From Escherichia phage IME267, in the sequence record NC_070983.1: a stretch of 64,000 nt of DNA; one strand, given 5' to 3'. Below the pieces are notes generated by a model. The model saw nothing but the letters and a program-made list of their open reading frames with translations. It made no database searches and was not told the origin of the DNA. Below, one piece after another: positions 41,312-53,839 of this stretch. The translations under genes and the position numbers were made by a program. The number at the start of each line of letters is the position of its first letter. The stretch's first letter is position 1.

Positions 41312-42547
41312 TTACAGAGTTACTGCTACTTCGCTACCTTCAACATTGACAGACTCTAACTTGCGAGGGTTATGAATCTGGACTGGATTGACCGGAACGT
41401 TCCAACCACTGCGGTAGAAGTTACGACCATCACAGAACAGGATGACATTGGCAGACATTGCATTCGGTTGCAGGTTGTTGTGGACATGACGGATATTTGC
41501 AATCCAGTAGCCACGAGACAAAGTGTAGCCAGTAGGTGCATTACGAATAGTTTGAGTATTCATCTGACCTTCCAGTTGCATTTCTTCAGGAACCACATCA
41601 ACTGAATCAATCGGCTGTGCTACTTGTCCTTCCAGTGCAAAGTTTTCATCATCAGCACTTTCAATATCATCCACCAACTCACCGTCTCCATCTTCAATCG
41701 GAGTCTGGTAAACCACTTTATACTGAGGAGTATAGAGAGGGTTCTGAGCTTTAACAAACTCAAGAATGTTATGACGGTAGGTATCCAGAGTTGTACCAGT
41801 CAGGCCCGGTGCTGTATTAACTTCCAGTACCCACGCTTCTTGACCTTTGGTGATAATATCAACTGCACCGAAATCCAGACCTATTGATTCAACAGCTTTC
41901 ACTGCATTGATCAGAGAGGCGTCATTCGGAGCATCTGTGAAGGAGCTTGAGTAAACCCAGCCAGTGTGGTGATTACGAATATCTTCACGATAGTTAGGGT
42001 CTTCGCGATAACCATTGCGACGAATCTTCTTCTGAACATAGGTGATTACACCTTTGAACACATGGACACGCCACTCACGACGTGGGCCTTGAATGCCTTT
42101 AGTGTACAGTTCAGCTCGACCAAGACCATCACCCGGTTCTACAACAACAATGCCCGAACCAGAGTGACCAGTCAGCTCATGGCGCTCATACACAATATTA
42201 CCAGTGTTTGACCACTCTTGAGCAGTCTCTTGAACATCTGTGTATTCCACAGTTTTAACACCTGCTTGGTCCATCACGCTGAAAGCACGACGTTTGTTCG
42301 CTGCCATATGTAAGGCTGCGGTACGGTTAAGGACGGTTGCAGAACCAAAGAATGATTCAGGATAGCGACGGTTCCCGTAGTTAACAACCACATCACCTTC
42401 ACGAGAACGCCAGCGGCTATTCTCTGAAAGAAGACCCATCACGTTAGCATTGATTCGTTCATCACGGATAGTATCACTGATAGCAGATACTAGAGCGTTA
42501 ACAGAATCAGACGGGCCATACGGAAGAACACGGATACGAGTAGTCAT
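41312..42547 (-). CDS. ATP-grasp ligase, RimK-like
   Basis: …GHSGSGIVVV…, …EWRVHVFKG…, …FGAVDII…VLEVNTAPGL… ATP-grasp blocks. Confidence 0.6.
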   Translation of the reverse strand: MTTRIRVLPYGPSDSVNALVSAISDTIRDERINANVMGLLSENSRWRSREGDVVVNYGNRRYPESFFGSATVLNRTAALHMAANKRRAFSVMDQAGVKTVEYTDVQETAQEWSNTGNIVYERHELTGHSGSGIVVVEPGDGLGRAELYTKGIQGPRREWRVHVFKGVITYVQKKIRRNGYREDPNYREDIRNHHTGWVYSSSFTDAPNDASLINAVKAVESIGLDFGAVDIITKGQEAWVLEVNTAPGLTGTTLDTYRHNILEFVKAQNPLYTPQYKVVYQTPIEDGDGELVDDIESADDENFALEGQVAQPIDSVDVVPEEMQLEGQMNTQTIRNAPTGYTLSRGYWIANIRHVHNNLQPNAMSANVILFCDGRNFYRSGWNVPVNPVQIHNPRKLESVNVEGSEVAVTL

Positions 42548-42996: not shown

Positions 42997-45030
42997 TTAG
43001 TGTTTACCTTTACAGTAATCTGAATTACAGATCACCCTGTTTTCTTTGTTCAGTGAGCAAGTTTCTGCATCACGCCACGGAATTTGTTTATAACAGACTG
43101 CACAAAACCCAATTGAAGTCCAGAGGGCTTTTGTAAACTCAGCTGTTCGTTGTCCATCGTAACTGACAACTGTTTTTCGGAGAGAGGTTGACTTTTCTGG
43201 AAATGTCTCCGCTTTCTCAGCGGGTACCTCCTTTGGGGCATTCTTTGGACCATAAACAGAGATGGCATAAGTATCACCACCACGTTTTTCCAAATACGAA
43301 TTAGGAACATCTGCAAGTGTGATGTCCCCTGAACGTTTTGCTGAGCTGACCATTACAATCATACGGCTAAGCATACGTTCATCAACACGAACAGCTACTT
43401 CAGGACGACGTGGGTTGGTTGTGTCTACTGCTTTAGTCCAAATATAACCTTCAGATAGAGTAACATTCTTTACTTTATCTTTGATTTCTTTGGAGCAGAT
43501 ATAACAAACGTCTTCACCACGAAGTTTACTCATTTCGTTGTCAAACTCGAAATCAGTCTTGACTTCACCACAGATAGCACATACACCCAAAGGCACATCT
43601 TCTTCCTCTTCAGAGGTTTTAGATAACGCTTCGAAGCATTCTGGATGCCAGTATGCCTGATAAGCAAACACAGCCTTACGAGCATCTTTCCAGTCAATGT
43701 GCTTATCACAACCACCACAGTCACCATGAGAGTGAGATTCCCAGAACTTACGAGTGACTTCTACACCATTCTTAGTGATGAAGGAGTCCTCTGCATCAAA
43801 AGGGATATCATCATCAAAATCAGCAGTAGTGCTTTGAGGCTCCTTATCTGTAGCATCAACAAACAGCCCTGAAGTTAGTACGAGGCGAATCATACTGTCC
43901 ACTTCGGAGATACAAGCAATCGTCCCGCGATATACTACCTTTGGGTTTTCAAGAGCCTTAAGATATTCATCTTTGGCTACGTTGTGAACATCCCCTTCGA
44001 CATACTCTTGAGCTTTATCATCGTAGATGTAACCAACCATCTTACCACGATCTGTGTTGTTATAAGCATGGAACTCGTGAGGAATAATATCCACACGACC
44101 ATCACGACGATAAGGAAGACCACGATCGGCAGCCAGTTTGTTCTGGTCTTCAATCGCTTTACGACGACGAATGTCTCCGCTTGTCACGCCGGGCTTGTCG
44201 TCTTTGTTTCCGTAAATGTCGCTTGTGCTGCTGCTTGATTTGTTTGTCTGTTGGTTCTGATAAAGAGAGGAGTTCGAGTAATAGCCGCCCCAGCGACTCG
44301 TTACCGTAAAAACCGGAAGCGTGTGCTCCACCTCTTGAACCAGAGTCATACGACTGTTAGACACATCAAAGATATACTCAGTTCCCACTTTACATTCGAA
44401 GTGGTCATTGATACGGTTCTTATGGGACTTAGAACGCTCTAAAATCCACATAAGCATAGCTTCTTCAGAAGCTCCAAACCAATCCAAACCACAGCGGGCT
44501 AGGTGGAAAGGACGCTCATCATTACGGATAATGTGAAGCGTGTTGTCTTTAGCATCATGCCAAATCAAAGTGAATGCACCATCCAGTTTTTGGATAGTCT
44601 CTGCTGCTCCAATGGTGTTAATTGAGTGGCAGATGTTTTCACTATCAACTTCGAAACGCTTACTGTCAGGAAGGAGATCTTGATCTAACAGGGTTCCATT
44701 ATGAACCAGAGTAATATCCCCGTGAGTAAATGGGTGAGCATTTCGAGCATTGACAGCCCCACGAGTGGCATGTCGGCTGTGACCAACAATCCACGAAGGA
44801 GGAACTACGTAGTTCGTAAGCCCTTTGGTAATATTTGTATATTCTGTCTGGAGCATAAAAGCATAAGAAGGAAGAGCTTCTTTATAAGAGAAGACTTGCT
44901 TTTCACCTTTACGCTGACCAAACACACCAGTTGAGTGCTGTCCACGGAAAACACCAGCATACAGAAGTTGGTTGAAAATGTCCAAATCTGCTGAGGTCAT
45001 GTTGCCGCCAGCTAATACGATACCACAAAT
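42997..45030 (-). CDS. Class-II glutamine amidotransferase-like (Ntn) domain fused to Cys-rich C-terminal region; probable ATT start
   Basis: CGIVLAGG…, …GHSRHATRG…, …NAHPF…, …VHNGTLLD…; C-terminus with several CxxC pairs. Confidence 0.6.
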   Translation of the reverse strand: MCGIVLAGGNMTSADLDIFNQLLYAGVFRGQHSTGVFGQRKGEKQVFSYKEALPSYAFMLQTEYTNITKGLTNYVVPPSWIVGHSRHATRGAVNARNAHPFTHGDITLVHNGTLLDQDLLPDSKRFEVDSENICHSINTIGAAETIQKLDGAFTLIWHDAKDNTLHIIRNDERPFHLARCGLDWFGASEEAMLMWILERSKSHKNRINDHFECKVGTEYIFDVSNSRMTLVQEVEHTLPVFTVTSRWGGYYSNSSLYQNQQTNKSSSSTSDIYGNKDDKPGVTSGDIRRRKAIEDQNKLAADRGLPYRRDGRVDIIPHEFHAYNNTDRGKMVGYIYDDKAQEYVEGDVHNVAKDEYLKALENPKVVYRGTIACISEVDSMIRLVLTSGLFVDATDKEPQSTTADFDDDIPFDAEDSFITKNGVEVTRKFWESHSHGDCGGCDKHIDWKDARKAVFAYQAYWHPECFEALSKTSEEEEDVPLGVCAICGEVKTDFEFDNEMSKLRGEDVCYICSKEIKDKVKNVTLSEGYIWTKAVDTTNPRRPEVAVRVDERMLSRMIVMVSSAKRSGDITLADVPNSYLEKRGGDTYAISVYGPKNAPKEVPAEKAETFPEKSTSLRKTVVSYDGQRTAEFTKALWTSIGFCAVCYKQIPWRDAETCSLNKENRVICNSDYCKGKH

Positions 45031-45107
45031 TTTCTAATCCACCTGAAGGGTAAACCCTTTCATCTAATTAACCTTTAAATGCGCCCTGTATAAGAGCGCC
45101 CGTTGTG

Positions 45108-46208
45108 TTACAGCAGTCGTTCTAATTGCATTTCCAGATGGTCTGGAATATAACCAGTGACGTTATCATCACTGCTACCTGATTCACGCATCAATGCAAA
45201 CATGTGACGAATTTCACGAACCGTTGCGATTCGAGTGCTTTCAATCTGAGGGGTGTAGTAGGTCATGATCTCTTCGTAGACACTGTTGGCATTACCGCGC
45301 ACATATCCCAAGAAACCATAGAAGTCATTCATATCACGTAAGTTGATAAGGACTTCACCATCAGGGCCAGTCTGTTGCACACGAACACGACCAACCAAAG
45401 TCACAGATTGCTCACGACAGAAGAGAATATCACGAGCAAGACGATACCCTTCAGTGAGATCACTGTCTCTTGGAGTATAGTCTAGGGGTAGATGTTGAAT
45501 CATAGGAGCGAAGCGCAGCTCATTCAACTTCTCAACATAAGCTTCATTGTCTAAATCTGCATATTCAACAGCCAGTTTCTTGAGAACCAAGAAGCGGTTG
45601 ACCAGATTCAGAAGTTGGCTCTTTTTCCACTTCGGCTCTGAGATACGGAACTCAACAGAACCAAATTGAGATAGAGGCAAAAGATTAAGGGAGGTATATT
45701 TATCCCAGCTATTAACAAGAGAGTGGAAGAAAGCTTCCCCGTCTCGGTTGAACGCTGACGAAGCATTCATAACTTGTGCTTGAACGACAGCAAAAGCTGG
45801 ACAGAAGTTGCTACGATAGCGATGGTATCCAGAACATTTGAACATCATCTTTTCATAGAACGTCCATCCAAGAATAACTTTCTTAAGGATATTACTATCA
45901 GCGTCACGCATATCCATATGAACGTGAGTGGAGCAGCGCCAAGTTCCCTCGGCTCCAGAATCCTGTACTGCTTCACTCAGATTGTTAATAGCACGAAGTA
46001 ATTCTTCACCGTTGTAAGGTCGTGCACACACTAATTCACAACCATCACGAAGAGAGCCATCTTCAGTACAAACCCACATATCAGCGTCAATATCAGTTGT
46101 ACCTTCGACTTCTAACTCAATACCAACACCACACTGAAAAGCAATACTTGGATGCGGTTCAGATAAGCGAGGGTTACGGTATCCAAAAACTTGTGCTACG
46201 GTTGTCAT
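45108..46208 (-). CDS. GS/GCS2-like carboxylate-amine ligase (amidoligase)
   Basis: …GVGIELEVEG… and …CSTHVHMD… resemble GCS2/YbdK-type metal-binding motifs. Confidence 0.5.
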   Translation of the reverse strand: MTTVAQVFGYRNPRLSEPHPSIAFQCGVGIELEVEGTTDIDADMWVCTEDGSLRDGCELVCARPYNGEELLRAINNLSEAVQDSGAEGTWRCSTHVHMDMRDADSNILKKVILGWTFYEKMMFKCSGYHRYRSNFCPAFAVVQAQVMNASSAFNRDGEAFFHSLVNSWDKYTSLNLLPLSQFGSVEFRISEPKWKKSQLLNLVNRFLVLKKLAVEYADLDNEAYVEKLNELRFAPMIQHLPLDYTPRDSDLTEGYRLARDILFCREQSVTLVGRVRVQQTGPDGEVLINLRDMNDFYGFLGYVRGNANSVYEEIMTYYTPQIESTRIATVREIRHMFALMRESGSSDDNVTGYIPDHLEMQLERLL

Positions 46209-46840: not shown

Positions 46841-47647
46841 TTATACAATCTGGAGTTTAGAGGAGAATTTATCCGCTTCTTTAACATCGTTACTGTTGAT
46901 GATGTTGTGAAGCTTTTCAATTGGAAGGCGAGAGTGAAGTGACATCAATACTTCCATATCACAGCCTTGAACAACCTTATCAACTTGCTCATAAACAAAC
47001 TTGCGGGTTGACTTCTCGCCAATCCAGAAGTTAGAAAGAGAACGATATTCAATGCCGTAATCCTTGTAACGAATAGCAGAAGCCTTTCCGTATAACTCTT
47101 TACGACGAGTGTCTTTATCCATGATCACAGCTGGCAAGGACAGGAAGTAATCACACAACACACCCAACATCATTTGAGTCTGACGACTAATTTCCAGCGT
47201 ACCAGCGACGCCAAGGTGAACGTGACCGCCAGCAGTACGCAGACCTTTGTCTGTCGCTACTGGTGAAGGGTTCTTTTGTCCAGTGAAGGCATTGAAATCA
47301 GGAGTACAACCAAATACAAAGGCTGACGGATGGAAAGATTCCAGCTCTTCTGAAGTGAACACATGAGAGCTAATCCCAAGTGCTGCCTCCATGCCACGTT
47401 CATTGAGAACTTTGTTAGTCAGATCAATACCACGCTGAATGTTATCATTAAACGCTTCAAACCCTTTCTGTGGGTTAATATCAAACTCGGCCAGAACGTT
47501 GTCTTCTTGAAGACGAACATCAGGAGCCAGATCAATTTTATTATCTTTAGAACAGCCCAGCTTACCAGCCACAGAGGTGATAATACCGGAAGCAGTACGA
47601 ACAAACATTTCAGGGTCAGAGCCAATAAGGAAAGCGCGCTTAGTCAT
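46841..47647 (-). CDS. Second GS/GCS2-like amidoligase-type protein (tentative)
   Basis: …IGSDPEMFV… and …GGHVHLG…; start set to MTKRAFL with GGAG RBS. Confidence 0.4.
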   Translation of the reverse strand: MTKRAFLIGSDPEMFVRTASGIITSVAGKLGCSKDNKIDLAPDVRLQEDNVLAEFDINPQKGFEAFNDNIQRGIDLTNKVLNERGMEAALGISSHVFTSEELESFHPSAFVFGCTPDFNAFTGQKNPSPVATDKGLRTAGGHVHLGVAGTLEISRQTQMMLGVLCDYFLSLPAVIMDKDTRRKELYGKASAIRYKDYGIEYRSLSNFWIGEKSTRKFVYEQVDKVVQGCDMEVLMSLHSRLPIEKLHNIINSNDVKEADKFSSKLQIV

Positions 47648-48590
47648 TGTAATACTCCACGAGTTCATCAAAAAGGGAAACAACACGAGCACCAGCTTCT
47701 TCTGGTGTCATTGAGGAAGGTACTGCTTGCATCAGACGTTCGATAAAACTTTGAACAGTAATTCTGTCCATACGCTGATCTAATACTTCTCGCTTGTGGC
47801 CTGCACAAGTTGACCAGAGACGTAACCACTCACTCATACTCTCATAATGGTCAGGGTCTTGGTCACGACGACGTGCCATACGACGGAGAACTCCATCATT
47901 ATGGTTTCGTACATAACCATCTCGGTTGTCATCAACACCGAATACATTCTGAACCCATACGTTTTCAGAAAATTCATCAGTGGTGCAAATTAATGGCAGA
48001 AATGCAATTGCACTCATGTCGCCATCAAAATAAGTCGCTGCTGACTCATCGGTTGAGTCTACGTCATTACTATAACACCAGCGACCAAAGAAGTTACGAC
48101 TTAAACCAGCTAAGCGTAGAGCTAAACCGATTCGTTGTCGCTTAAGCAACTCTTCCTTGTCTTGTACGCCTTCCTGAAGGAACTCCATTCCATTAAAATC
48201 ACCATCCAAATAGCTACGGATGGTCATTAGTCCAGTAAACACCTTATCTGCTGGATGGTTTCGAAGGTTCACGGCAATAGAGTTCACCGAAGTGACAGAG
48301 AACATATCTTTATAGCAAGACATTGAGTTAAAAATGTCTGTTGCTTCAACTAAAGCTCTTTCGATATCTTTAGCTGGTACGCCATAAAAATTGTGAGGCC
48401 AGAAGTTAATAACTTCAATTTCTGAAGTTCTGTCACGAAGGCTTGTTCGGTTACGACTTTCACCGTTAATGTCTGTAACAGAATACATGTGCATACAGTT
48501 AAAAGTACCAAAGCAAGCTCTTCCTTTGAACACTGACTCACCGAAATCCTCTGCCGGTGTTACCGGAGCAATCGATGCGGAGATTGACAT
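47640..48590 (-). CDS. Hypothetical protein within the amidoligase cluster
   Basis: 316-aa ORF, no recognisable motif. Confidence 0.35.
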   Translation of the reverse strand: MSISASIAPVTPAEDFGESVFKGRACFGTFNCMHMYSVTDINGESRNRTSLRDRTSEIEVINFWPHNFYGVPAKDIERALVEATDIFNSMSCYKDMFSVTSVNSIAVNLRNHPADKVFTGLMTIRSYLDGDFNGMEFLQEGVQDKEELLKRQRIGLALRLAGLSRNFFGRWCYSNDVDSTDESAATYFDGDMSAIAFLPLICTTDEFSENVWVQNVFGVDDNRDGYVRNHNDGVLRRMARRRDQDPDHYESMSEWLRLWSTCAGHKREVLDQRMDRITVQSFIERLMQAVPSSMTPEEAGARVVSLFDELVEYYND

Positions 48591-53763: not shown

Positions 53764-53839
53764 TGGTGCACCCTACAGGACTCGAACCTGTAACCAACGA
53801 CTTAGAAGGTCGCTGCTCTGTCCGTTGAGCTAAGGGTGC
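53764..53839 (-). tRNA. tRNA-Arg(UCU): tRNA-Arg (anticodon UCU), 76 nt with encoded CCA
   Basis: Hand-folded cloverleaf: 7-bp acceptor stem, D arm, anticodon loop CTTCTAA, T arm ACAGG-TTCGAGT-CCTGT, 3' ACCA. Confidence 0.8.

Follow-up and report, generated by a model that had tools for sequence, protein, structure and literature searches.

Translation of the glutamine amidotransferase gene of Escherichia phage IME267 raises the question of where it begins. The window analysed here, a stretch of 64,000 nt (NC_070983.1), belongs to a phiEco32-like podophage, and mechanical ORF calling places the start of this minus-strand gene at ATG 45000 (42997..45000), as the earlier note had recorded. In class-II (Ntn) glutamine amidotransferases, however, the catalytic cysteine comes first once an initiator or propeptide has been removed, and a candidate cysteine lies just upstream of the called ATG, behind an ATT codon. 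The gene almost certainly starts at this ATT, judging from the comparative data set out below, so that the catalytic Cys becomes residue 1. The broader reading, that it encodes a functional class-II glutamine amidotransferase translated from AUU 45030-45028, is held at a probability of about 0.8.

Position and reading frame of the gene

The minus strand runs TAG (45036-34) AAA ATT (45030-28) TGT GGT ATC GTA TTA GCT GGC GGC AAC ATG (45000), and the in-frame codons 5' of the ATG encode K-I-C-G-I-V-L-A-G-G-N. The run I-C-G-I-V-L-A-G-G-N, behind a stop codon, had been singled out in the earlier note; both the peptide and the amber codon are where it placed them. It had likewise proposed ATT as the sole initiator abutting the Cys codon, with AGGTGG 8 nt upstream as its Shine-Dalgarno (SD) sequence, and the letters bear this out: the near-cognate codon has an SD at a functional distance upstream (ATTAGAAA, from AGGTGG through the 8-nt spacer to ATT). 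Between the TAG and ATG 45000, that is before residue 10, there is no in-frame ATG, GTG or TTG; with the TAG two codons 5' of the Cys, no canonical start could yield the conserved N-terminus. As read from the sequence, a protein bearing Cys1 can arise only from the ATT. The corrected coding sequence has 677 codons from ATT to stop, giving a predicted mature protein of 676 aa with Cys first, whose N-terminal tryptic peptide (alkylated Cys, without Met) would be CGIVLAGGNMTSADLDIFNQLLYAGVFR.

The coordinates of the gene and its surroundings are collected in Table 1. The amidotransferase gene adjoins genes matching Amidoligase_2, COOH-NH2_lig and, weakly, RimK ATP-grasp. This is the arrangement of the phiEco32-type amidoligase / ATP-grasp / GATase gene cluster of Iyer et al. 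2009, to the extent that it is conveyed by the citation in PMC10580990.

Table 1. Features at and around the amidotransferase start in the window
Feature	Coordinates	Strand	Basis
Class-II (Ntn) glutamine amidotransferase, corrected CDS	42997..45030	-	ORF list, Pfam, PHROG, ortholog CDSs
ATT (AUU), inferred initiation codon	45028..45030	-	Sole candidate codon abutting Cys1; TAG two codons upstream; conservation
TGT, catalytic Cys1 (putative Ntn nucleophile)	45025..45027	-	Invariant in alignment, GlmS/PurF register
AGGTGG Shine-Dalgarno	45039..45044	-	8-nt spacer to ATT; sequence, duplex energy
In-frame TAG	45034..45036	-	3 nt before ATT; ends upstream reading frame and mini-ORF
Mini-ORF, ATG AAA GGG TTT ACC CTT CAG GTG GAT TAG (MKGFTLQVD, stop)	45034..45063	-	Sequence
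Hairpin UGAA(A)GGG-UUUA-CCCUUCA	45044..45062	-	Directly 5' of SD; conserved; RNAfold
55-nt invariant leader module, TAAAGGTTAATTAGATGAAAGGGTTTACCCTTCAGGTGGATTAGAAA ATT TGTGG	45023..45077	-	Alignment of relatives
Stem-loop GCGCUCU-uauac-AGGGCGC	45081..45099	-	After amidoligase stop codon; RNAfold
Amidoligase, upstream partner gene (Pfam Amidoligase_2)	45108..46208	-	Pfam; annotated amidoligase enzyme in relatives
COOH-NH2_lig gene	46841-47692		Pfam match
RimK ATP-grasp gene, weak match	41312-42547		Pfam

Identity of the enzyme and of its nucleophile

Two Pfam models score above their curated thresholds, GATase_6 with 53.7 bits (cut-off 27) and GATase_7 with 25.1 (cut-off 25), and the match to PHROG 4736 (E=8e-184) puts the Cys of the window on position 2 of the profile. 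When the family profile is compared with E. coli GlmS (1xff), Cys1 falls on Cys1 (E=1.3e-16); the same profile aligns the Cys to Cys1 of PurF (1ecb) and of mature B. subtilis PurF (1ao0), and hhalign gives 98.5% probability with the Cys1 register unchanged. The N-terminal C-G is invariant in 23 diverse homologues and, together with these alignments to GlmS and PurF Cys1, indicates that the canonical Ntn N-terminus seen by the earlier note is not a product of chance. Also invariant in the 23 are R28-G29, R85/T88, H109-N110-G111 and D128-S129. These residues align with the glutamine-binding and oxyanion residues of GlmS, whose signature in GlmS numbering consists of Arg-Gly at ~26, Arg/Thr at ~73-76, Asn-Gly at ~98-99 and Asp at ~123. 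The whole class-II glutaminase catalytic set is thus invariant, a result which supports a real glutaminase with the Cys as its nucleophile.

The phage protein shares with the class-II domains of GlmS and PurF the Cys1 nucleophile, the Arg-Gly, His-Asn-Gly and Asp residues and a domain of ~190 residues in register. Unlike them, it belongs to a phage-specific family (PHROG 4736) which pairs with amidoligase and ATP-grasp genes, and its C-terminal ~430 residues, with CxxC-rich motifs, are not related to SIS or PRTase domains.

Comparative evidence for the ATT start

In the alignment with orthologs that the earlier note had suggested, ATT precedes the Cys codon in all relatives sampled. It is present in 95/95 related phage records and in five IMG/VR contigs, in 6/6 metagenome contigs recovered with a search pattern that left the start codon free, and at the same position in Aeromonas phage BUCT695; the near-cognate codon is therefore conserved among orthologs. 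In outgroup Grimontviridae phages, ATG-TGT occupies exactly the position of the window's ATT-TGT. Orthologs without the CGIV segment were looked for among the relatives and none was found. Members of the subfamily differ from one another in codons 2-9 (CGIVLAGG) by synonymous third-position changes only; BUCT695 has more synonymous changes and one Gly-to-Ser substitution. At the position of ATG 45000, phiEco32, EP335 and KBNP1711 have a leucine codon, CTG or CTC, and most of the subfamily likewise has Leu there.

The predicted duplex with the anti-SD sequence has an energy of -5.9 kcal/mol at the ATT site, which is the median of the window phage's long ORFs and so of average strength, and of -4.8 kcal/mol at the ATG-45000 site. 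It had been claimed that the latter has no comparable ribosome binding site; the ATT site is indeed the stronger, but the claim is only weakly true. As the two energies are close, the SD alone would not decide the start, whereas the comparative data do. The AGGTGG is predicted to be mostly unpaired and accessible, and is replaced by AGGCGG in BUCT695.

These comparisons bear directly on the second option of the earlier note, a pseudo-amidotransferase that begins at ATG 45000 or later and has neither Cys1 nor glutaminase activity. Gene callers and the SU7 and HC-25922 records pick ATG 45000, the EP335 RefSeq entry begins 58 codons later, and a marginal SD-like GGCGG gives the ATG-45000 site its duplex energy. 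That ATG is not conserved, however, the nine codons 5' of it are under coding constraint, and all catalytic residues, the ATT and its leader are invariant. Contradicted by the comparative data, a pseudo-enzyme has close to no probability. The rare ATT start, the first option, is supported by the same non-conserved ATG and constrained codons 2-9, together with the invariant ATT and the outgroup ATG-TGT.

The ATT start is not new at this locus, since it has been annotated before in GenBank. The coding sequences of phiEco32 gp83 (2008), SU10 gp85 (2014) and Bas87_0079 (Bas87, BASEL), which are orthologs with the same leader, already begin at this ATT, and many related records have no coding sequence over the amidotransferase start at all. 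In the literature searched, neither a discussion nor a test of the annotated ATT start in phiEco32, SU10 or Bas87 was found, nor was any N-terminal sequencing, toeprinting or initiation-site profiling for these phages. Proteomics of SU10 by bulk MS detected the ortholog with nine peptides, the most among early gene products (PMC4281155). This top peptide count sits uneasily with very low expression, though the protein is large.

Near-cognate starts across the phage family

The wider family was sampled from IMG/VR without regard to start codons, by scanning DNA with a degenerate pattern for the internal motif NAHPF-x8-HNG. ATT or ATC stands before Cys1 in 11/101 phage family members of this sample, compared with 0/78 cellular GlmS-type control genes, all 78 of which have ATG (Fisher p=0.0027); the share of ATT/ATC in the phage amidotransferase family is about 11-15%. 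ATT and ATC together are commoner before Cys1 than GTG and TTG combined, and ATA, CTG and ACG were never seen there in the phage family. Fitch parsimony on an NJ tree gives about 13 start-codon switches; on this reconstruction, the weak-start trick is one that recurs independently across the family.

Several features of the near-cognate sites were compared with those of other members. Their SDs are stronger, with a median of -8.7 kcal/mol vs -5.9 in ATG members (p=1.2e-4). Near-cognate members are not enriched for a long ORF tightly coupled upstream (3/11 vs 48/80), and such coupling was rejected as an enabler of near-cognate starts. A hairpin directly 5' of the SD is not significant as a general near-cognate feature (p=0.19). 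The window's own SD, by contrast with those of the other near-cognate lineages, is of no more than average strength, and BUCT695 has AGGCGG; both count against the ATT start.

Another known way of exposing Cys1 is the processing of a propeptide, as in B. subtilis PurF, where it is 11 residues long. There seem to be propeptide-bearing members in the phage family as well: L085 and L135 have an in-frame presequence of ~30 aa ending in LY immediately before CG and appear to use it, and in L149 an ATG stands 11 codons upstream. In the window, an uninterrupted presequence with a canonical start is absent. The in-frame TAG breaks the frame between the Cys and any start 5' of it, and a PurF-type route would therefore need amber read-through: translation would start at ATG 45063 and pass the UAG at 45036-34, and a 12-residue propeptide, MKGFTLQVD-X-K-I, would be autocleaved. 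In both the window lineage and BUCT695 the mini-ORF shares the reading frame of the main ORF, and mature B. subtilis PurF starts at Cys1 in PDB 1ao0, both of which would fit such a route. Efficient suppression of UAG would be required, however, and the only tRNA that the phage encodes is tRNA-Arg(TCT), so that a phage-encoded amber suppressor is absent; natural E. coli hosts, moreover, are not suppressor strains. Read-through would leave the conserved SD, 8 nt from the ATT, without a purpose, and in 16/17 near-cognate lineages no canonical start lies upstream in frame. Read-through is thus very improbable.

A conserved leader around the start

The leader, which comprises hairpin, SD and TAG-AAA-ATT, is 100% identical in nine Gordonclarkvirinae, in whose flanking sequences 30-70% of columns are invariant, and among the 95 records only two variants of the 65-nt leader region occur. 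Between BUCT695 and the window, 44/46 leader positions (-38..+8) are identical, compared with 67% in the coding sequence and 51% upstream. The hairpin has an energy of -6.1 kcal/mol (RNAfold) in both, the BUCT695 change lying in the loop only. The corresponding DNA is palindromic, AAGGGT-NN-ACCCTT, and in BUCT695 the arms form a perfect palindrome of 14 bp. This extreme purifying selection on 55 nt suggests a dedicated translational control module, as far as can be judged from alignments.

The RNA fold of the whole leader is not unusually stable (z=-1.1), and the leader contains no sigma-70 match. It was rejected as a known RNA family, since Rfam gave no match (best E=0.18, wrong strand), and as a phage promoter, since the sigma-gp36 motif tAATGTATAtA is absent and the 64-kb window holds no second copy of the leader motif. 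Further upstream, the stem-loop that follows the amidoligase stop codon is terminator-like but has a weak U tract, and was not called by a strict terminator scan. Its stem carries compensatory changes in phiEco32, EP335 and KBNP1711 (GUGCCUC...GGGGCAC).

A further function, compatible with the ATT start as one element, may drive the conservation of the leader; the leader RNA might be bound by a translational repressor of phage or host origin, or the palindrome might serve as an operator in the DNA. Fifty-five nucleotides without substitution across genera go far beyond the needs of an SD and a start codon, and the contrast with the less conserved flanks, in both the subfamily and BUCT695, points the same way, as does the perfect palindrome. 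The single copy of the motif, the missing Rfam match and the absence of the sigma-gp36 motif speak against it. Such a function is a tentative proposal, with the odds somewhat against it.

The leader also holds the mini-ORF, nine codons long and in frame with the amidotransferase. It has to be considered whether this is translated, with ribosomes stopping at UAG and restarting 3 nt on at AUU, whose use would then depend on, or be boosted by, mini-ORF translation, as at thrS-infC. The geometry of a stop codon 3 nt before an AUU initiator is shared with E. coli infC, which encodes IF3 (UAA GGU AUU there, UAG AAA AUU here), and the natural infC junction gives ~2x the output of a stand-alone AUU (PMC3592434). 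The mini-ORF is intact in the window lineage and in BUCT695, and in the window its ATG has an AAAGG 8 nt upstream. Its AUG, however, is buried in the stem of the conserved hairpin (P(unpaired) 0.03-0.07 for U and G), its SD is weak (-3.4 kcal/mol) and lost in BUCT695 (AAATG), and both differences between the two peptides are nonsynonymous. The lack of enrichment for upstream coupling across the family also tells against reinitiation. Translation of the mini-ORF is doubtful, and termination-reinitiation is an unlikely explanation, though a less remote one than read-through.

Translation from AUU and its possible consequences

If, as preferred here, initiation occurs at AUU itself, ribosomes would be placed at 45030-45028 by the AGGUGG 8 nt upstream, and initiator tRNA would still put in fMet. 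Deformylase and methionine aminopeptidase would then take off the fMet, leaving Cys1 exposed as the nucleophile. Cysteine at position 2 is a permitted substrate for methionine aminopeptidase. In E. coli reporters, expression from AUU has ranged from ~1-2% of AUG output to 6-8-fold lower than AUG (10.1101/063800, PMC3592434), and IF3 discriminates against non-canonical start codons (PMC9723500). Since AUU is near-cognate and disfavoured by IF3, synthesis of the enzyme is probably held below the level that an AUG would give. The general role of IF3 suggests that the AUU start could possibly also tie synthesis to initiation-factor status, and the leader is read here as regulatory.

Like that of infC, the phage AUU would be an inefficient start discriminated against by IF3. 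The AUU of infC, however, forms a feedback loop on IF3 itself, whereas the phage product is a metabolic enzyme with no feedback known; the upstream frame, too, is a mini-ORF with a buried AUG and not a real gene as at infC. The closest functional analogy for an AUU acting as a throttle may be E. coli pcnB, encoding poly(A) polymerase I, which is likewise an AUU-started enzyme, although its protein is not related to the phage amidotransferase. A 2002 report by Binns and Masters, cited in PMC3592434, is said, going by its title, to describe a weak AUU start that limits pcnB translation. To our knowledge, chromosomal AUU starts are famous as almost unique, with infC and pcnB as the examples.

The corrected start restores the catalytic Cys to a protein of which many deposited orthologs (SU7, HC-25922 and EP335 among them) are truncated, and the truncated annotations would mislead toward an inactive enzyme. 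With its invariant N-terminal Cys, the family naturally reveals non-canonical starts that escape gene callers. The recurrence of these starts suggests either that they are under-counted in phages or that the enzyme needs throttled or conditional synthesis. The leader, common to E. coli and Aeromonas phages, offers a compact regulatory candidate that is directly testable. It is conceivable, if on balance doubtful, that selection has repeatedly favoured AUU or AUC starts with a strong SD as a regulatory trait of the family, and that the 46-55-nt leader of phiEco32 and BUCT695 is a dedicated translational operator, possibly sensitive to IF3, a phage factor or a metabolite, for example. If true, this would be a natural phage system in which the identity of the start codon is itself the control point.

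Initiation codon of the amidotransferase gene

On the minus strand of the window the start region reads CCCTTC AGGTGG ATTAGAAA ATT TGT GGT ATC GTA TTA GCT GGC GGC AAC ATG ACC. An earlier note had proposed that translation begins at this ATT rather than at the downstream ATG chosen by the ORF track; its coordinates for the ATG, the stop, the ATT and the Shine–Dalgarno (SD) sequence are all correct, as is its reading of the codons before the ATG as C-G-I-V-L-A-G-G-N following a stop. No ATG, GTG or TTG lies in frame between the TAG and ATG 45000. Its argument from ribosome binding holds in part: an SD does precede the ATT, but the statement that the ATG has no comparable site is soft, and since the anti-SD duplex energies are −5.9 kcal/mol (ATT) and −4.8 kcal/mol (ATG), the SD by itself is not decisive.

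Features of the amidotransferase region
Feature	Coordinates	Strand	Remark
ATP-grasp gene	41312-42547		neighbour of the amidotransferase gene
C-terminal ~430 aa	42997-44280	-	part of the amidotransferase
Mechanical ORF	42997-45000	-	ATG 45000 as start
Leader	45023-45077	-	TAAAGG to ATT TGTGG, 55 nt
ATT, inferred start codon	45028-45030	-	directly before Cys codon TGT
In-frame TAG	45034-45036	-	followed by AAA, ATT, TGT (Cys), GIVLAGGN
AGGTGG SD	45039-45044	-	8 nt upstream of ATT
Stem-loop	45081-45099	-	directly after amidoligase stop codon
Amidoligase_2 gene	45108-46208		neighbour of the amidotransferase gene
phiEco32-type COOH-NH2 ligase gene	46841-47692		neighbour of the amidotransferase gene
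tRNA-Arg(TCT)	53764-53839	-	sole tRNA gene of the window

The ATT reading is supported by comparison with relatives. Alignment of orthologues, proposed as a check on whether an ATG precedes the Cys, finds ATT-TGT in all of phiEco32, EP335, KBNP1711, ECBP2, TH34, SU7, Bas87, HC-25922 and their IMG/VR relatives, and ATG-TGT at the same position in the outgroup Grimontviridae phages Privateer, A24 and SE131, in Lahexavirus LAh_6 and in Bruynoghevirus, Krylovvirus and Bjornvirus phages. The 65-nt stretch around the start occurs in just two variants among 95 Escherichia and Shigella phage records (window type, 26; phiEco32 type, 69), both with ATT and separated by the synonymous GGT/GGC difference. 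In a metagenome scan that fixed neither the start codon nor one base of the SD, ATT was found in 6/6. In phiEco32, EP335 and KBNP1711 a Leu codon (CTG or CTC) stands at position 45000, and the track's ATG is therefore a Met codon particular to its lineage rather than a conserved start. Within the subfamily all differences in codons 2–9 are synonymous (GGT/GGC, GCT/GCA, GGC/GGG/GGT, GGC/GGT/GGA); Aeromonas phage BUCT695, of the family Grimontviridae, adds synonymous GTA/GTC and TTA/TTG and one Gly-to-Ser change. This pattern is the signature of translation in this frame. The sequence observation at 45028-45030 is confirmed.

A start at Met10, giving the pseudo-amidotransferase that the earlier note had offered as its alternative, is disfavoured by the Leu codons at 45000 and by the synonymous-only changes upstream, and is hardly credible. 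Read-through of the amber codon, with autoprocessing to expose Cys1, is highly improbable: the phage encodes no amber suppressor, its only tRNA being tRNA-Arg(TCT). Proteomics of SU10 detected the orthologue through 9 peptides that cover 23.7% of it (PMC4281155), so the protein is made, as judged from bulk peptides.

Gene identity and the catalytic cysteine

The window shares ~99.9% identity with MLP3 and HC-25922, two Escherichia phages that belong to the phiEco32-like podophages (Gordonclarkvirinae). Its protein matches Pfam GATase_6 (53.7 bits; cut-off 27) and PHROG 4736 (E=8e-184), where the Cys falls at profile position 2, and the family consensus is therefore M-C. Across 23 homologues (34–58% identity) C1, G2, R28, G29, H109, N110, G111, D128 and S129 are invariant. 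The family profile matches the E. coli GlmS glutaminase domain 1xff (E=1.3e-16, residues 1–188) with Cys1 on Cys1, and also E. coli PurF and mature B. subtilis PurF in the same Cys1 register; hhalign against the Salmonella GlmS N-domain gives 98.5% probability with the register unchanged. By these several lines the Cys is the predicted Ntn nucleophile.

The gene neighbourhood is the phage amidoligase/GATase cluster, credited to Iyer et al. 2009 by PMC10580990. The orthologous region of SU10 belongs to the early-gene class, driven by sigma-70 promoters (PMC4281155). An AIG2-like/YtfP gamma-glutamyl cyclotransferase gene adjoins or lies near the amidotransferase in Vibrio phage 1.208.B (L047) and SU10 (gp78), and this proximity in distant phages hints at a pathway handling gamma-glutamyl compounds. 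The C-terminal ~430 aa match no Pfam domain, giving a sub-threshold LIM match only, and carry CxxC pairs (CGGCDKH, CAICGE..CYICSKE, CAVCYKQ..CNSDYC); the last ~160 residues are lineage-specific, as PHROG 4736 coverage stops at about residue 513.

Near-cognate starts across the phage family

A scan of IMG/VR with an internal motif independent of the start region, N-A-H-P-F-x8-H-N-G, yielded at least 120 loci. Among the matches listed, Cys1 was anchored by HMM in 101, and the codon before it is ATG in 80, ATT in 7, ATC in 4, TTG in 4, GTG in 3 and another in 3 (one mis-anchored and truly ATG, two with presequences). ATT or ATC stands directly before the Cys, each time with a strong SD, in many lineages of the family that are unrelated to one another, namely in loci L071, L075, L084, L100, L102, L105, L117, L118, L130, L149, L151, L035, L036 and L040; a cultured example is the PA11-like Pseudomonas phage IME180 (L045), with GGAGG-N9-ATC-TGT. 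In 16/17 near-cognate lineages no canonical start lies in frame between the upstream stop and the ATT/ATC. Median SD strength is −8.7 kcal/mol at near-cognate and −5.9 kcal/mol at ATG sites (Mann–Whitney p=1.2e-4), as expected if the former are genuine, compensated start sites.

When 135 N-domains are placed on an NJ tree, Fitch parsimony requires 13 switches from a canonical root, and the closest relative of most near-cognate sequences is an ATG sequence. When this set, which includes targeted additions, is dereplicated at 70% identity (n=101 clusters), ATG accounts for 77 clusters, ATT or ATC for 15, GTG or TTG for 7 and other codons for 2. Near-cognate starts outnumber GTG and TTG together, an inversion of the usual start usage of ATG 81.8%, GTG 13.8% and TTG 4.35% (10.1101/063800). 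Cys-anchored cellular GlmS-type genes (C-G-I-V-G-A-I) have ATG in 78/78 matches listed; the difference from the phage family (11/101 against 0/78, among matches listed on both sides) gives Fisher p=0.0027, with the caveat that GlmS has a housekeeping role and high expression. Neither ATA, CTG nor ACG was seen before Cys1 among the family members listed, though ATG-to-ATA is a transition. The TGC:TGT ratio is 7:4 after near-cognate starts and 19:61 after ATG, among the matches listed.

Two AT-rich IMG/VR loci, L085 and L135, have no start adjoining the Cys and instead carry an in-frame hydrophobic presequence of ~30 aa ending LY|CG (M..IINILLLIAIWN.. and M..VVVNIFLGIILWN.., respectively), which suggests propeptide or membrane-anchored precursors that would need autoprocessing. 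Another, L023 (3300025276_000050), begins ATG TGC TGT (M-C-C-G-I-V) and, once Met is removed, would carry two cysteines in a row at its N-terminus.

A conserved leader

The leader is 100% invariant in nine Gordonclarkvirinae, in which 30-column windows of neighbouring coding sequence have 30–77% invariant columns. BUCT695 (L288) belongs to a family other than the window's, and its protein is 66% identical to that of ATG-bearing A24 and 60% to that of the window; nevertheless its leader from −38 to +8 (about 1213-1258) is 44/46 identical to the window, against a nucleotide identity of 67% for the adjoining CDS and 51% upstream. Of the two differences, one turns the loop of the hairpin from TTTA into TTAA and the other the SD from AGGTGG into AGGCGG at its central base. 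Such constraint is far above the needs of an SD and a start codon. An additional operator function, compatible with the ATT start, is possible but doubtful; no known RNA family, gp36 promoter motif or sigma-70 promoter was matched in the leader, and no second copy occurs in the 64-kb window.

A hairpin, UGAA(A)GGG-UUUA-CCCUUCA (−6.1 kcal/mol), is predicted to end at the SD, leaving SD and AUU mostly unpaired. The A24 leader appears to derive from a deletion and would use AAAGG as direct SD for an ATG; in the window that AAGGG makes up the hairpin's 5′ arm. The leaders of A24 (Cronobacter, L008), Privateer (L007), SE131 (L009) and BUCT695 share with the window a TTAAATGTAA-like motif and TAGATGAAAGG; the AATGTA core is similar to tAATGTATAtA, the promoter motif of phiEco32 sigma-gp36. 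The upstream stem-loop, which separates two genes of the same pathway, has a stem that varies in a compensatory way from one phage genus to another (GCGCUCU/AGGGCGC vs GUGCCUC/GGGGCAC); with AUUUAAA alone after it, it would be a weak or non-canonical terminator.

The leader also holds an in-frame 9-codon mini-ORF, MKGFTLQVD*, which closes with a UAG 3 nt upstream of the AUU, the geometry of the thrS-infC junction (PMC3592434). Despite this likeness, translation of the mini-ORF with reinitiation at the AUU is unlikely: its AUG is buried in the predicted hairpin stem, its weak SD is lost in BUCT695, and both substitutions in the peptide there are nonsynonymous.

Mechanism and efficiency of initiation

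Most likely (probability about 0.8, from sequence comparison), SD-directed initiation at AUU with fMet-tRNA would be followed by removal of Met by deformylase and MetAP, exposing Cys1 as the nucleophile. Cys at P1′ is permissive for MetAP. The mechanism is of a known kind, the AUU initiation of infC and pcnB.

Non-canonical start codons are discriminated against by IF3 (PMC9723500). AUU reporters give 1–2% of AUG output (range 0.02–3%; 10.1101/063800), or output 6–8-fold below AUG, and 4-fold below in the infC context (PMC3592434). We infer that the purpose may be to keep synthesis of the glutaminase throttled or conditional in relation to the ligase partners co-transcribed with it, a reading that needs caution because no other early gene product of SU10 gave as many peptides as the orthologue (PMC4281155).

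Annotation and significance

The start of the gene is annotated inconsistently across GenBank and RefSeq records. CDSs begin exactly at this ATT in phiEco32 (phi32_83, EU330206), SU10 (SU10_085, KM044272) and Bas87 (BASEL), and amidotransferase features over the leader in the phiEco32 and SU10 RefSeq and other BASEL records are consistent with it. Annotation from the downstream ATG in SU7 (MZ342906) and HC-25922 (OQ555404) loses 10 codons including the catalytic Cys, which is also lost in EP335 RefSeq (NC_070979; 58 codons late) and Pseudomonas phage IME180 (MF788075; 14 codons late); in many records no feature covers the start. In Bjorn (MG775259) the annotation skips a perfectly good ATG-TGC and starts 12 codons further downstream.

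The ATT start at this locus is to all appearances real and already in curated annotation. In the literature searched, no paper discussing this ATT was found, nor any report of family-wide AUU/AUC recurrence or of the shared leader. What is added here is the recurrence of AUU/AUC starts in a phage family, together with an ultra-conserved leader common to two phage families.
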